From positions 1 to 40,943 of the forward strand of contig JAWAQK010000017.1 of assembly GCA_038893995.1 (NCBI GenBank): a stretch of DNA of 40,943 bases, in the 5' to 3' direction. Each line of letters starts with the position of its first letter. Within the stretch, counting starts at the first letter, position 1. This document shows, one piece after another, positions 22,953-27,725 of this stretch. The notes beneath the pieces were generated by a model that ran no database searches, was not told the origin of the DNA, and was given only the letters and a program-made list of their open reading frames with translations. Both the position numbers and the translations under genes were made by a program. This stretch comes from Candidatus Thorarchaeota archaeon (lineage in GTDB: Archaea > Asgardarchaeota > Thorarchaeia > Thorarchaeales > Thorarchaeaceae).

Positions 22953-23861
22953 TCAGATACTCCTTATGGCACGGCCCAGACCGTTCCTCAGCACCTTGTC
23001 CCTCAGCTTGAGTCCCTGACCCTCAGCGATGTCGAGGAGCACGGGGACCAGCGACAGGTCGATGGACACCTCTGTGGCCAGTCTCGTGTCGGTAATGGGT
23101 TTGTCAGTAGAGGTGAGTATCTGCTTCATGTTCTCGTAGGCATATAATATCCTGCTCACCTCACTCTTGAGCTGGGCGTACGCGTTCTCCCCCGCGAGTA
23201 CATCCTCTATCACCTTACTCAGATACGAAGTGTCTGTCCTTGGACCCTCCGCGATGAACCTTCTTGAAACCATGTCAAATACGCAGATGTCTTTGAGTAC
23301 CTGTCCCTCCATCTCTTTATGGGATGCAGGAATGATGTTCACTGACTGACCCGAGAAGAGCTGCCGGATCATATCGACAAGTCCTCTGGCAGTGTCTCGT
23401 TCGCTGTGAACACAGACGACTTGCCTCCCAGTCACGGCCTGTGTCAACATCAGGCCCAGGACCTTGATCGCATCCTTTTGACGTTCGTTCAGCAGGCCCA
23501 GTACGTCACTTAGGTCAAATGCAGCCTCAGACTCGAGTCGTTCCAGCGTCTTCTCTGATACCCTTGACGCTAGATCATCCGCCATGGATGTCTCCGGATA
23601 CTCAATCCCCCTTACCCTGAGCATAGCGTCAACATATGCCACTACTGCGTGAATGGGCGCGCCGTGAATTGACACGATCGACAGAAGGCCGCCCGTCCTC
23701 TTGGAGTCCTTTCCGGTAGGGATCGCGAGGGGCACATTCTTCTTGCATGTCTCACAATACACAAAGACGGTCCTACCGTCTGCCTGTGACATCCTTGTCC
23801 ATACCTCCTGACGATCAGAGGTGATTGTCCGGTCGTGCTCTATACTGCTGATGATATCCAT
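22953..23861 (-). CDS. Hypothetical protein: N-terminal CxxC/His domain, central alpha/beta (DENN-core-like) domain, C-terminal wHTH-like segment
   Basis: YCETCKK...SIHG.P.HAVVAYVD..LRVRGIE, then TGRQVVCVHS...ICVFDM. Alternative start at ATG 23792. Confidence 0.7.
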   Translation of the reverse strand: MDIISSIEHDRTITSDRQEVWTRMSQADGRTVFVYCETCKKNVPLAIPTGKDSKRTGGLLSIVSIHGAPIHAVVAYVDAMLRVRGIEYPETSMADDLASRVSEKTLERLESEAAFDLSDVLGLLNERQKDAIKVLGLMLTQAVTGRQVVCVHSERDTARGLVDMIRQLFSGQSVNIIPASHKEMEGQVLKDICVFDMVSRRFIAEGPRTDTSYLSKVIEDVLAGENAYAQLKSEVSRILYAYENMKQILTSTDKPITDTRLATEVSIDLSLVPVLLDIAEGQGLKLRDKVLRNGLGRAIRSI

Positions 23862-23888
23862 AAAAGACTTCTACTGATGGCCTCCTGT

Positions 23889-24407
23889 TCATGAGAGACA
23901 CAGGTTCTTCAGACGAGAGACGAGCTCTTCGAAGTTCTTGCCCGTCTTTGCACTGATGATCACATAAGGTATTCCAAGATCCTTTGCCTTGTTCTCTATG
24001 TCTTCTCTGGTAACGGTGGTGGGTTCGTCCTCCTTGTTCCCCACTAGCAGCCATCTATCACGAGGGACATGTCGAATCAGTGGAATCCAGTTATCAACCT
24101 CGAACAACGACGTGATTCTTGTCATGTCCACGACTATCAGGACTGCATGCGTACCCACCAGTAGGGCGTTCTGCATGAATCTGAACTGGGGCTGGCCGCT
24201 CAGGTCAAACAACGCGACTTTCACTCGTGGTTGCCCCTCTTCGTTGGCTATCGACCATGTCTCAACGTTGAGACCGACGGTCATCATCACATCAACAAAC
24301 TCGCCTGAGGTCAGCCTTGTGGCTATTGTTGTCTTTCCTGCTGCTCCTGAGCCCACAAAGGCGACCTTCAGGATCTTCGCGCTCAATTCATGGACCCCCA
24401 GCTGCAC
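23889..24407 (-). CDS. Ras-superfamily (Rab-like) small GTPase
   Basis: G1 GSGAAGKTT, G2 TVG, G3 DLSGQ, G4 NKED, G5 SAK. Alternative TTG start at 24386. Confidence 0.93.
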   Translation of the reverse strand: MQLGVHELSAKILKVAFVGSGAAGKTTIATRLTSGEFVDVMMTVGLNVETWSIANEEGQPRVKVALFDLSGQPQFRFMQNALLVGTHAVLIVVDMTRITSLFEVDNWIPLIRHVPRDRWLLVGNKEDEPTTVTREDIENKAKDLGIPYVIISAKTGKNFEELVSRLKNLCLS

Positions 24408-24498
24408 ACATCACCAAGAGTTGCCGAGATGGGCCGATCACCAACGTCTATCACCTTCCACCACGATGACCGGCCATTACTCGGTATGCCTCCACCAA

Positions 24499-25194
24499 CT
24501 ACTTCTTCGTCCGGACGACAGCGTGAACGAGTAGAAGCGCTCCAATCACTGCTACTACCGGATGAAGGATTGACAAGGTCGGATGAAGGAGCAATGCCTG
24601 GCCCAGTGTGATGGCCAGCCAGCCCACAAGTAGCTGTAGTGCTCGCAGCCTGTAAAACGGATCGCTCTCGTTCCTCATTGCCACAAACAGGAAGATTGCA
24701 ACGTACAGGACAGTAATCAGTGCCGCGCCGATGACTATCTCATATGCGAATGGTACCACCTGCTCGAGCCTATAGTGCGAGAGTCCGTAGCTGTCAGTGT
24801 AAGTGTGAGAGGCATCACAAACAAATGGTAGGGTCAAGAAGATGCCCAGAAACACAATGCTGGTGATCAGCACGAAAGCTGAGTATCTTGACCTCCACAC
24901 CGATGCCTTGGTCTTCATAGTGGGATATGCAAAGTAGATAGACAGTGTCACGCCCATGATGCCTGTCAGTGCAATTCCGATTCTCCACAAGAGGATGTCA
25001 CCTGCTGACTGAAGGTCGAATAGTCCTCTTGAAGCGTAGGTCAGTAGCCCCGTCATGTATATTGCCATGAAGGCTGTAAATGCTAGTGTCATGGTATTCT
25101 TCTGACTGAAATACCGTTTCAACAGTACGAGCACACACACCGTGACGATTACTCCCGTGACCAAGAAGGTATAATGTAGCAGACCGAATGCCAA
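24499..25194 (-). CDS. Stand-alone seven-transmembrane protein
   Basis: Seven hydrophobic segments by eye and no cytoplasmic output domain. TTG 25194 is preceded by an AGGAGGT Shine-Dalgarno. Confidence 0.78.
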   Translation of the reverse strand: MAFGLLHYTFLVTGVIVTVCVLVLLKRYFSQKNTMTLAFTAFMAIYMTGLLTYASRGLFDLQSAGDILLWRIGIALTGIMGVTLSIYFAYPTMKTKASVWRSRYSAFVLITSIVFLGIFLTLPFVCDASHTYTDSYGLSHYRLEQVVPFAYEIVIGAALITVLYVAIFLFVAMRNESDPFYRLRALQLLVGWLAITLGQALLLHPTLSILHPVVAVIGALLLVHAVVRTKK

Positions 25195-25240
25195 GTCGTC
25201 AGACCTCCTAGTGTTGTGTGGCTGAGCTTCCTCACACTCA

Positions 25241-25364: not shown

Positions 25365-25817
25365 CTATGTGCGAAACCCGGCCGGTTGTGAACGCCACAT
25401 CATCAGTGCCTCCCACACCGAGAAGGCCAGTGCTGCCATCAGTGTCAAGATCAACAGCACATCCAGCGGTGTGGGGCTGAATCCAAACACAAGAAGATAC
25501 CCAATCAACTCAGCCGAGAAGAATGTCGCGTAGAATAGGTAGCGGGGCATCATGAAGCGGCCTCGTCCCAGAAAGAACCGAAGAGCCCCAATCTTGATCT
25601 GCCGTGCGACACGGTATCCTCCCTCCGGAGACATCTCGACTAGTCCAAGATCCTTGAGCTTGTTGAGATGGTACAGCGCGAGGCTTGGACTGGACAGATG
25701 GAGCCTCCTCTGGACCTCACGCAGGGTCATCTGATCGTCATTCTTCATGAGCTCAAAATACACCCTGAGGGTCGTTTCCTTGACTTCTTCGACGATCTGT
25801 CCATCATCAGATGCCAT
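25365..25817 (-). CDS. Membrane-anchored winged-HTH regulator
   Basis: TTLRVY...REVQRRLHLSSPSLALYHLNKLKDLGLV, PRYLFYATFF, two C-terminal TMs. AGGTGA Shine-Dalgarno before ATG 25817. Confidence 0.82.
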   Translation of the reverse strand: MASDDGQIVEEVKETTLRVYFELMKNDDQMTLREVQRRLHLSSPSLALYHLNKLKDLGLVEMSPEGGYRVARQIKIGALRFFLGRGRFMMPRYLFYATFFSAELIGYLLVFGFSPTPLDVLLILTLMAALAFSVWEALMMWRSQPAGFRT

Positions 25818-26147
25818 GGCATCACCTTCATCCGCGACTGTCGCTGTGGGTGGGCTATCCGTCTCCTCCTTTCGGTCTACCGTCCGCATGTTGGATCGTC
25901 AAGCTGTCTGGCACGTGACCCCAGGGCGCCTTGACGTGGCACAGATCGCGACCATGAATGGGCTGTCCGGGGCCTCGGCACCAATTCTGCACCAGTCACG
26001 ACTGGCGCCTTCATTCTCGCCTCGCTCCTGACCCGCAGGGCCGTGAGGATGCACTGCGACTGGATGCACAAGCTGCAGATGTATCTGAGGCTCTCTGCTG
26101 ATCATCTTGGCCAGCAAGACGACTACAGGCACAAGGAGAGATAAGCT

Positions 26148-27344
26148 TTAGCGGGTCGAGGTACTGTCCCGGCTCTGGCCACCCGTGACTCGGCGCCTTG
26201 CCAGGCCGTACACAAAGGCAGCAACGGTCAGAGCCACGACTGTGGTGACGAGAACATCCCGGATACTAGATGGTTGCCCAAGGTCGAAGAGATCCTCCAG
26301 CGAGAACATTCTTCTGAAGATTCCCGGTCTGCTGCCGTCAAAGGCATCTCCATAGTACTCAACCAGTTGTGCCCCCCTGAGCGGGAACGCCCATGATAGC
26401 TGAAACAGGAGCCTAGTGTCATACGGAGATAACGACACCTGTACGAGCCGAAGATGACTCTCTATCTGGTCACTATACAGGACGTCGATACTCTCCCTGG
26501 CCGCAACCCGCTGATACACGACTTCTGGTCGACTCACACCCACAGTCGTAACTGCACCGCCATCCAGGTGCAGGTACCTGAAGGTGAGCACCTCGCCTGT
26601 GACTGCATCAACCTTGGCGAACACACCCTCGTAGTCGGGATCCAAGAGCAGGTCTCCATGGACTATACCGAGTCTGAAGGTGTAATACGTGCCAGAGTCC
26701 TCTGCAGCTGTCTGAGCACACTCGATCAGCCTAGTGTTTGCTGGAATCTTGTAACCGTGCAGAGTCATGAAGTCAATGAGTCGCTCCTCAATGACGCTCT
26801 GAGCTGCTGGAGTTGTATCATTGTTGATGGGTCTCTGCCCGAGTATGTCGGCGGCCTCGGGACTCCGCATCACAGCGTACTCGAGCACCCTGCCCGAAAC
26901 GCCATTGATAATGGTAGTCACCAAGAGCTCGTGATCCGCCACCTTTCCCATCCACCGGACCGAGATCGACTGTCTGTAGCCATCCAGAGTGGCAGCAGGT
27001 GATCTGTCGAGGTAGTCCTTGTAGGCCTCGGGAATGAACTGCCAGGAGATGTTCAGGGCCTCTTGTCTCGAGATGACCCTGTCCGGGGTTGAGTATCTGA
27101 ACTCGAGAATGCGTGGTCTGTCTCGAATCTGGACGAACTGGCCGCGGAATATGACCCTGTCCGGCTCGTCATTCACAAGACTGCCAAACGACAGTTCCCC
27201 AACGGGCACTCCTGGCAGCCTCGTGTCGCCCGGCCCGGCGCTGGCTACGTAGTAGACAAATATGACGACACCGAAACCTGAGCTGAAGAAGAGAAGGAGG
27301 AGCACTGTGAGCATGAGTCCAGATCGAAACAGGGCCGCCTTCAT
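26148..27344 (-). CDS. Doubly membrane-anchored extracellular protein with PepSY/YcdB-like repeats
   Basis: N- and C-terminal TMs, with repeats ISRQEAL...INGVSGRVL, VDAVTGEVL, GDAFDG. Start 27344 or 27362. Confidence 0.65.
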   Translation of the reverse strand: MKAALFRSGLMLTVLLLLFFSSGFGVVIFVYYVASAGPGDTRLPGVPVGELSFGSLVNDEPDRVIFRGQFVQIRDRPRILEFRYSTPDRVISRQEALNISWQFIPEAYKDYLDRSPAATLDGYRQSISVRWMGKVADHELLVTTIINGVSGRVLEYAVMRSPEAADILGQRPINNDTTPAAQSVIEERLIDFMTLHGYKIPANTRLIECAQTAAEDSGTYYTFRLGIVHGDLLLDPDYEGVFAKVDAVTGEVLTFRYLHLDGGAVTTVGVSRPEVVYQRVAARESIDVLYSDQIESHLRLVQVSLSPYDTRLLFQLSWAFPLRGAQLVEYYGDAFDGSRPGIFRRMFSLEDLFDLGQPSSIRDVLVTTVVALTVAAFVYGLARRRVTGGQSRDSTSTR

Positions 27345-27725
27345 GTTTTCTGCCGTATACATATGTGCACGACCCCGATATGATTCTACCTTTAGAGCTT
27401 CTACCGAGAAGCATTTCTAAACTGTCTCTGCGAGATCATAAGAGACCCAAGGATGAAACGTCCCCTTGAGCGTACGGTGTCTGTATCTTGCACGAGACCG
27501 TTGGGAGCTTCAGGACGATCATCTGGTCGGGTTCCGTGAATGACACAGCCGACGCAGTCAGTGTATGCTGCGGATATCCAGCGTCGCCGTCCAATCTGTT
27601 CACGTTTGGGCGAGTCTTCGGCCTCCGGCTGGTATCAATGTCTCCGGAAAGTACTTCACGATGGAAGTCGCGTCCTGACTCACTCCCCAACTGTAGATCC
27701 GCCGAAGAGGAGTTATTGTGGGATG

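Follow-up and report, generated by a model that had tools for sequence, protein, structure and literature searches.

Can a seven-transmembrane (7TM) protein that has no output domain of its own be coupled to a small GTPase encoded next to it, and if so, through which partner? The question is raised by a locus of Candidatus Thorarchaeota archaeon (metagenome-assembled genome GCA_038893995.1), which we analysed within positions 1-40,943 of the forward strand of contig JAWAQK010000017.1 (40,943 nucleotides (nt); hereafter the window). The DNA of the locus is contained in three DNA runs of one hot-spring study (labelled hot springs metagenome). Three co-oriented open reading frames (ORFs) on the minus strand encode a 7TM protein, a small GTPase that is Rab-like, and a 302-amino-acid (aa) protein with a folliculin/DENN-like fold, referred to below as the regulator (Table 1). 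A preliminary description of the locus had noted the three co-oriented genes, the seven helices, the strong Shine-Dalgarno site of the first gene and the lack of an output domain in its product, the intact G1-G5 motifs and Rab-like character of the GTPase, and a DENN-like fold with a winged-helix-like end in the third protein. It had read them as a possible membrane-to-GTPase signalling unit analogous, not necessarily homologous, to G-protein-coupled receptor (GPCR) signalling, to be checked by synteny and by interaction within the set. The observations are confirmed here, apart from the start of the third gene, and the interpretation is partly supported. We consider it reasonably probable that the 7TM protein, the DENN regulator and the Rab-like GTPase make up a module in which a small GTPase is regulated in connection with the membrane, and that this module is specific to a subset of Thorarchaeota.

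Gene linkage and the predicted contact

Word-indexed protein searches returned almost nothing for the regulator or the 7TM protein. Homologues were gathered by six-frame searches of whole genomes, and the linkage set comprised 38 full-length regulator genes with their flanks, all from one Thorarchaeota family. A conserved C-terminal tail, with the consensus [DN]-G-L-G-R-A-[IL]-R-S-[IF], is present in 16 of these 38 copies, and all 16 have a gene of the 7TM family directly upstream; none of the 22 tail-less copies has a 7TM neighbour (at least 1.5 kb of upstream sequence is available for 18 of them). The upper bound on the gap between the 7TM and regulator genes is 8 nt or less in four pairs, and in two of these it is negative, the genes overlapping. 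The regulator copies linked to a 7TM gene are deeply divergent, and paralogous pairs occur within one genome (some genomes have two). With protein identities of about 30%, the repeated finding of this arrangement in many related genomes is beyond chance, and the gene order is conserved in Thorarchaeota as far as the 7TM and regulator genes are concerned.

The GTPase gene is a less regular member of the cluster. An intact copy lies between the 7TM and regulator genes in six of the 16 clusters, the window included, the order GTPase-7TM-regulator is found in one, and one cluster is cut by a contig end. Seven clusters contain no GTPase gene and in one more it is degraded to a relic. Four genomes with GTPase-less clusters were checked, and all four encode GTPases of the same subfamily elsewhere. 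The constant pair of the cluster is the 7TM protein and the DENN protein, not the 7TM protein and the GTPase, and the 7TM-to-GTPase coupling suggested in the preliminary description gives way to this pair, which is also the one predicted to interact.

For complex prediction, the 7TM protein and the regulator were each given their own unpaired alignment. The median interaction prediction score from aligned errors (ipSAE) was 0.64 (runs 0.60, 0.64 and 0.66), against 0.00 for the best control; scores this high were obtained for 58 of 80 solved complexes and for 2 of 110 mismatched pairs, a calibration that is only rough for unpaired alignments. The runs agreed in at least 96% of contacts, with a predicted local distance difference test score (pLDDT) of the partners of at least 85. 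A contact inside the module, between the 7TM protein and the regulator, is thus predicted with clean controls. In the model, the regulator contributes its entire tail (291-302) as well as residues 255-264. The 7TM protein contributes residues 33-39, 87-101, 168-188 and 226, all on the Lys/Arg-rich cytoplasmic face, where they belong to the RETDPFYK loop (residues 175-178, 181 and 184 included) and to the ends of the helices TM2, TM3, TM5 and TM6.

Several features of the two alignments agree with this prediction. The interface holds 6 of the 12 most conserved residues of the 7TM protein, compared with 1.3 expected (hypergeometric p=5e-4), and the mean column conservation is 0.63 in the interface versus 0.44 elsewhere. 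In the tail of the regulator, G294, L295 and R300 are conserved in 12-13 of the 13 tail-bearing alignment rows, and the alignment had flagged the tail as an element travelling with the 7TM protein before the complex was predicted. The topology deduced from charge counts puts the predicted interface on the cytoplasmic, that is the correct, side of the membrane. Together with the model, these data suggest that the tail of the regulator plugs into the inner face of the 7TM protein.

In a maximum-likelihood tree, the 22 tail-less copies form one clade (100/99 support). Many of them (L053, L054, L059, L024, L026 and others, mostly of genus g6) end in lysine runs, for example …EMKKKKKKKKKKKK, which may be direct membrane-binding tails. 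Judging from such lysine-rich ends, the property under selection may be the targeting of the regulator to the membrane. Several tail-less loci have an adjoining gene whose product, as read from the sequence, has an MsrA-like N-terminus (GSGCFWCTEAV…).

Folds of the three proteins

The TTG codon at position 25194 aligns with the MAFG... N-termini of all homologues of the 7TM protein, which upholds the start chosen in the preliminary description and rules out ATG 25293, the start of a longer ORF. Inspection of the upstream region revealed a weak TATA-like GATTTAAG at 25248-25241, and no A/T-rich box was seen in the gap between the 7TM and GTPase genes. The hydropathy profile has seven segments, and the AlphaFold2 model (13-sequence alignment; mean pLDDT 89.9, predicted template modelling score (pTM) 0.84) has seven helices and a beta-hairpin between TM4 and TM5, with strands at residues 127-133 and 139-144. 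Lysine and arginine residues number 13 on one face and 2 on the other. The 13-residue face, with the C-terminus and loops 1, 3 and 5, is accordingly assigned to the cytoplasm, and the other, with the hairpin and the N-terminus, to the outside. E176 of the cytoplasmic TM5-TM6 loop is invariant in the alignment, and an RGFFD loop is conserved as well. The protein ends four residues past TM7; no fused cytoplasmic output domain (kinase, GGDEF, EAL or PAS) was found on it, and 20 of 20 clear relatives are 92-235 aa long. A rhodopsin identity was considered and rejected, as TM7 is seen to contain no lysine.

Comparison of the 7TM model with the PDB returned GPCRs of several classes, designed GPCR-like folds, rhodopsins, AdipoR and ACER3. 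The template modelling scores given by Foldseek were 0.4-0.6; the best Z scores were 15.4 for ADGRL3 (204 aligned residues, root-mean-square deviation (rmsd) 3.9) and 14.9 for Ste2, where a Z of about 13 is ordinary for helical bundles. These scores are closely bunched and reflect a generic 7TM arrangement. Much closer were the best matches in the ESM Atlas, which reached template modelling scores of 0.72-0.79 by query, with an rmsd of 3.0-3.6 Å over 212-219 residues. Seven of the ten atlas rows are labelled with the Pfam family HisKA_7TM, and two more are kinase or GGDEF/EAL signalling proteins without that label. One homologue aligns with PF16927 at 22.3 bits, below the cut-off of 28.6 (E 1.3e-4, profile positions 10-216 of 224). 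The protein of the window itself has no Pfam match, HisKA_7TM included, and the family profile reaches no HisKA_7TM proteins among 1.84 billion sequences searched. On the basis of the atlas fold matches and the PF16927 alignment of the homologue, the 7TM protein is best described as a stand-alone, divergent HisKA_7TM-like module. It resembles the 7TM input domains of prokaryotes, which as a rule are joined to a kinase or cyclase in the same protein.

The 7TM family has a narrow distribution, with 21 representatives among the 1.84 billion proteins. It was found in 16 of 86 genomes of this Thorarchaeota family, and 314 other Asgard genomes yielded no credible match. One match from outside (Logan contig, L001) has no adjoining regulator or GTPase gene. 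The genome of the window encodes a second paralogue of 236 aa (G000:C44:3838-4545, L081; E 1.6e-56 to the family profile), with no regulator or GTPase gene beside it. In another cluster (L013:4359-5224, G024:C51), the 7TM gene is represented by two overlapping ORFs, owing to a frameshift or an assembly error.

The regulator had been described as a 302-aa partner 27 bp after the GTPase gene. The ORF stands, but its size and distance probably do not: translation most likely begins at Met24 (ATG 23792), which would give a protein of 279 aa about 96 nt past the GTPase stop. This start is preferred because an AGGAGG located 11 nt upstream, the N-termini of homologues and two independent gene calls agree on it. 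The regulator has no PDB match by sequence. Its model (pLDDT 81.8, pTM 0.77) has DENN-family proteins as its top 13 Foldseek matches, with DENND1B first (E 7.5e-6), followed by DENND1A, FNIP2, FLCN, C9orf72, SMCR8 and DENND10. VIA-align of residues 111-292 gave Z scores of 11.0 for DENND1A (159 aligned residues, rmsd 4.9), 10.2 for DENND1B, 10.0 for DENND10, 8.4 for FLCN and 8.3 for C9orf72, compared with 6.4 or less for unrelated rows. Residues 236-293 superpose on the winged helices of NiaR, MarR and CAP (Z 5.4-6.4, rmsd about 2 Å). The neighbours of the regulator in the ESM Atlas are Asgard clusters, one of them with Pfam Folliculin in 23% of its members, and DENND1C.

In the N-terminal domain, which VIA-align barely covered, the model has five strands (residues 30-87) and two helices (91-110), with a loop at the place of helix alpha1. 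The most conserved residues of the regulator (C36, C39, H66, G67, P69, H71 and R84, all in invariant columns) lie in this domain. A putative zinc module of Cys and His residues ahead of the longin domain is a feature of folliculin, too (PMC3438538), and a GP motif ahead of strand 2 with an arginine finger is the mark of the GTPase-activating protein (GAP)-type longins of FLCN, SMCR8 and some Asgard longins (PMC12290439); the order and placement of these motifs in the regulator differ from both descriptions. Among the 400 Asgard genomes searched, the full-length regulator is confined to this Thorarchaeota family, and its N-terminal domain has matches in 240. Across Asgard families this domain often adjoins small-GTPase genes, as do three of its four copies in the genome of the window.

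One of the loci with this domain is a paralogous pair in the same genome (G000:C48:11535-12620; L042:4436-5521), in which a GTPase of the same subfamily is followed by a 181-aa protein that matches only the N-terminal half of the regulator (profile positions 16-151), and then by two more small ORFs; this pair could represent the module in split or minimal form. In other Asgard families (L044-L046), 328-344-aa proteins with the same domain are encoded directly after very large genes (1133-1328 aa), and in L046 there is a GTPase gene downstream as well. A further arrangement is seen in genus g78 of family f9 (L030-L033), where regulator-like proteins of about 285 aa (CxxC…CxH) possess a conserved C-terminal tail of their own, …SNISNFLSTL, and each of their genes is preceded by a co-oriented gene for a 4-TM protein of about 165 aa. 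In three of these four loci, a 6-7-TM protein (287-297 aa) is encoded within about 1.5 kb, paired with a GTPase gene in L032 and L033. Neither the 4-TM nor the 6-7-TM proteins have a detectable relation to the thorarchaeal 7TM protein, and the arrangement may be a parallel membrane-partner solution.

The GTPase matches Pfam Ras (E 9.7e-25) and contains G1 GSGAAGKT, T43 of switch I, G3 DLSGQ with the catalytic Gln, G4 NKED and G5 SAK. The best 60 PDB matches of a profile built from it and its close relatives are all Rabs, among them Sec4 (7e-23), Rab35 (3e-20) and a crystallised Thorarchaeota Rab (1.5e-19). A C-terminal prenylated cysteine motif was not found; the protein ends in ...KNLCLS, with a cysteine that homologues do not conserve. 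A possible alternative start of the GTPase is TTG 24386 (Table 1). In the nearest relative of the window (L066:2472-2690, G365:C125), a GTPase relic of the last ~38 codons (…GIPYVMVSAKTGENFDRL…) remains between intact 7TM and regulator genes. Unlinked GTPases of the same subfamily in other thorarchaeal genomes (L071:1998-2777, L073:731-1492) are followed by a protein of about 255 aa with no match to the regulator profile, which may belong to a different partner family.

The gene directly upstream of, and co-oriented with, the 7TM gene (25365-25889, minus strand) encodes a 174-aa protein with a winged helix (HTH_20, 2.7e-6) and two C-terminal TM helices. It was considered as a member of the module and dropped, since its position next to the module is not shared by other genomes. 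The next protein (26148-27362, minus strand; 404 aa) has N- and C-terminal TM helices and a weak PepSY/YcdB-like similarity (E about 0.02-0.03). No Roadblock Pfam match was found among the flanking genes, which encode the 7TM protein, the winged-helix TM protein, a major facilitator superfamily (MFS) transporter and the PepSY-like protein.

Table 1. Genes and sequence features of the 7TM-GTPase-regulator locus (window coordinates)
Feature	Position	Strand	Basis
Stand-alone 7TM membrane protein, 231 aa, TTG start	24499..25194	-	ORF, Shine-Dalgarno site, model, charge counts, fold matches
AGGAGG Shine-Dalgarno-like site, 9 nt ahead of the 7TM TTG start	25204..25209	-	read from the sequence
Cytoplasmic TM5-TM6 loop RNESDPFYRLR of the 7TM protein, residues 174-184 (family motif RETDPFYKxRA), centre of the predicted docking site	24643..24675	-	alignment and interface
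Conserved extracellular beta-hairpin TM4-TM5, residues 127-144 (TYxDxxGLxHY), candidate sensing element	24763..24816	-	model, alignment, Lys/Arg-poor face
Rab-like small GTPase, 172 aa from GTG 24407 (alternative TTG start 24386), intact G1-G5, no lipidation motif	23889..24407	-	Pfam, motifs, PDB matches
Folliculin/DENN-like regulator, 302-aa ORF (likely start ATG 23792, 279 aa)	22953..23861	-	model, Foldseek, homologue N-termini
N-terminal five-stranded longin-like domain, residues 30-110, with invariant C36, C39, H66 and H71 (Cx2C-26-Hx4H), HGxP and R84	23532..23774	-	alignment, secondary structure
DENN domain, residues 111-292, alpha/beta core and helical winged-helix-like d-DENN part	22986..23531	-	VIA-align
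C-terminal tail LRNGLGRAIRSI of the regulator, residues 291-302, predicted plug for the 7TM cytoplasmic face	22956..22991	-	co-occurrence, conservation, predicted interface

Proposed mechanism and alternatives

Four results established by computation, namely the topology, the folds, the conserved linkage of the genes and the co-occurrence of tail and 7TM gene, can be combined into the following scheme. The 7TM protein, with the fold of a HisKA_7TM input domain, would be a membrane receptor or anchor whose N-terminus is outside and whose C-terminus is in the cytoplasm. Its conserved cytoplasmic face, to which TM2, TM3, TM5 and TM6 contribute their ends and which includes the RETDPFYK loop, would bind the C-terminal helix of the regulator (…NGLGRAIRSI) and the adjoining winged-helix-like part. 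The regulator, a putative cytoplasmic folliculin-like protein made up of a zinc-longin and a DENN domain, would then act, through a presumed direct contact, on the co-encoded Rab-like GTPase, which itself appears to carry no lipid anchor. It could do so in either direction, as an exchange factor of the DENN type or as a GTPase activator of the FLCN/SMCR8 type, in the latter case via the conserved HGxP...R84 surface of the longin domain. In this way GTPase cycling would take place only at the membrane, probably under the control of the state of the 7TM protein, with a presumed signal as input and a presumed downstream effect as output.

Some of the data weigh against such a module. The regulator has no sequence match to DENN, uDENN, dDENN or Folliculin, and no Pfam match was found for it or for 19 homologues at E values up to 1; its apparent membership in the DENN family is at the fold level only. 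The unpaired alignments behind the rough calibration of the complex score belong here as well, as does the fact that the membrane is left out of the model. Since all tail-less copies belong to one clade, the correlation between tail and 7TM gene amounts to one evolutionary event. Some five 7TM paralogues, including one in the genome of the window, are encoded on their own; together with the frequent loss of the GTPase gene, this means that the three genes are not an obligate unit.

A more specific form of the scheme can be envisaged, in which a prokaryote-type 7TM sensor gates a eukaryote-type DENN regulator of a Rab-like GTPase by accepting its C-terminal helix, with a geometry convergent on that of GPCR and G-alpha and a logic prefiguring the transceptor recruitment of folliculin/C9orf72 complexes. 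This form we regard as tentative and, on balance, doubtful.

The 7TM protein might instead sense nothing and tether the DENN regulator, and thereby the GTPase, as the lipidated LAMTOR1 does for Ragulator, a part perhaps played by the polybasic tail in the tail-less clade. That clade seems to have swapped the docking tail for lysine-rich C-termini, as if membrane targeting alone mattered; no conserved polar pocket is evident inside the bundle, most of the conserved residues being cytoplasmic; and a LAMTOR1-like protein occupies the corresponding position of a published Asgard operon. However, the nearest fold relatives of the 7TM protein are the input domains of histidine kinases, diguanylate cyclases and phosphodiesterases, both the extracellular beta-hairpin and the RGFFD loop are conserved, and a seven-helix bundle would be elaborate for mere anchoring. 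A purely passive anchor thus appears unlikely.

The folliculin/C9orf72-like fold of the regulator also brings to mind the transceptors. Polytopic transporters such as PQLC2, the lysosomal cationic amino-acid transporter, recruit eukaryotic longin-DENN complexes (PMC7039192), and the 7TM protein could be a small transporter that controls, by whether its substrate is bound, the recruitment of the DENN regulator, in the manner of PQLC2 with C9orf72-SMCR8-WDR41 or SLC38A9 with Rag and folliculin. Among the listed fold matches, however, there is no PQ-loop or SWEET protein, and the sole transporter, Ost-alpha/beta, has a Z of 12.7, level with many other 7TM bundles. Conserved charged residues of the transport type are not visible within the helices, and the partner of PQLC2 is WDR41, not a DENN tail. 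We consider a transporter very improbable.

Equally little probability attaches to the idea that the three genes are neighbours by descent and act independently. The GTPase is dispensable in the cluster, lone 7TM paralogues and regulator paralogues without a 7TM neighbour exist, and all genomes come from one family. Yet the 7TM and regulator genes have stayed linked at identities down to ~30%, after duplication, with an altered gene order and where the gene between them was lost; several loci have them overlapping, and the complex was predicted with clean controls and on conserved residues.

Finally, a 302-aa protein that is chiefly a winged-helix DNA-binding regulator, held inactive by the 7TM protein and released under control of the GTPase, would be in keeping with the superposition of residues 236-293 on NiaR, MarR and CAP and with the membrane sequestration of regulators common in prokaryotes, but it is the least probable of these alternatives, as the same residues lie inside stronger and longer DENN alignments (Z 8-11 over 150-170 residues), the winged-helix-like surface is taken up by 7TM docking in the model, and the most conserved part of the protein is the N-terminal domain, which travels with GTPases.

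Relation to known systems and significance

The membrane-coupled module favoured here has its nearest described counterpart in an Asgard operon (Liu et al., bioRxiv 10.1101/2020.10.19.343400; Nature 2021) with genes for a Roadblock protein resembling LAMTOR1, for a Rab-like GTPase and for a DENN protein; the latter was suggested there, on the model of folliculin, to be a regulator of the GTPase. In both, a Rab-like GTPase gene adjoins the gene for a DENN protein; this pairing is already published for Asgard archaea and is not new here. The thorarchaeal module differs in that it has no Roadblock gene and has a stand-alone 7TM protein in first position. A transmembrane partner is absent from the main text of that paper, and neither the docking tail nor its loss in a polybasic clade is described there. 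We read the thorarchaeal module as a variant of the known GTPase-DENN operon with a stand-alone sensor-type 7TM partner.

With the eukaryotic pairs DENND1A/B-Rab35, folliculin-FNIP and C9orf72-SMCR8, the regulator shares the DENN fold of residues 111-292 (Z 8-11), a beta-rich longin-like N-terminus and a Rab-like GTPase as putative partner. Like folliculin, it has an N-terminal Cys/His putative zinc module (PMC3438538), although the motif is Cx2C...Hx4H in the regulator and HxCx2H...Cx2C in folliculin. By analogy, the eukaryotic longin-DENN complexes are likewise recruited by polytopic membrane proteins such as PQLC2 (PMC7039192). Unlike them, the thorarchaeal regulator has no match at the sequence level to their families, is much smaller and has a longin domain that appears to lack helix alpha1, and its docking tail has no described eukaryotic counterpart.

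HisKA_7TM (PF16927) is a membrane input domain of histidine kinases, GGDEF/EAL and PAS proteins, and archaeal DUF835 proteins. The 7TM protein shares with it a seven-helix bundle of the same size and shape; it differs in being unfused, its output apparently consisting of non-covalent coupling to the DENN protein. A prokaryotic gene set that may be analogous is the actinobacterial conservon (CvnA-D; Komatsu et al. 2006), which also joins a membrane sensor-type protein, a Ras-superfamily GTPase and a regulator, and which has been likened to G-protein-coupled regulation (PMC4316618). As summarised there, the conservon consists of a histidine kinase, a Roadblock/MglB protein, a DUF742 protein and an MglA-type GTPase, whereas the thorarchaeal set has a kinase-less 7TM protein, a DENN protein and a Rab-like GTPase. 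In the Pfam scan, no kinase, Roadblock or DUF742 gene was found in the thorarchaeal cluster.

The analogy to GPCR signalling drawn in the preliminary description holds in that the 7TM bundle, like that of eukaryotic GPCRs, has its N-terminus outside and its C-terminus inside, but the resemblance is one of 7TM bundles in general and is not specific to GPCRs. The predicted docking of a partner's C-terminal helix at the cytoplasmic ends of TM2, TM3, TM5 and TM6 is reminiscent of the alpha5 helix of G-alpha. In contrast to GPCR coupling, the predicted docked partner is the DENN regulator, not the GTPase, and the fold similarity is generic; homology is not claimed. Neither a DRY nor an NPxxY motif was seen in the 7TM sequence.

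Asgard archaea possess many Rab-, Arf- and Rag-like GTPases along with longin, Roadblock and DENN proteins, and it is largely unknown which regulators pair with which GTPases and by what routes these reach the membrane. Operons rarely help to pair Asgard GTPases with their regulators, according to a structural study (PMC10933270). The module described here proposes a definite set of a GTPase, a DENN regulator and a membrane partner, as well as a docking element that can be mutated, that is, the 12-residue tail and the conserved cytoplasmic loop. Because it specifies both the partners and the docking element, the pairing is testable with three small proteins. If the coupling is true, a prokaryotic sensor fold would have been wired to eukaryote-like GTPase machinery before eukaryotes arose, and the recruitment of folliculin-like regulators to membranes by polytopic proteins would be older than lysosomes. 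The module is a candidate case of GTPase signalling coupled to the membrane in archaea closely related to eukaryotes.

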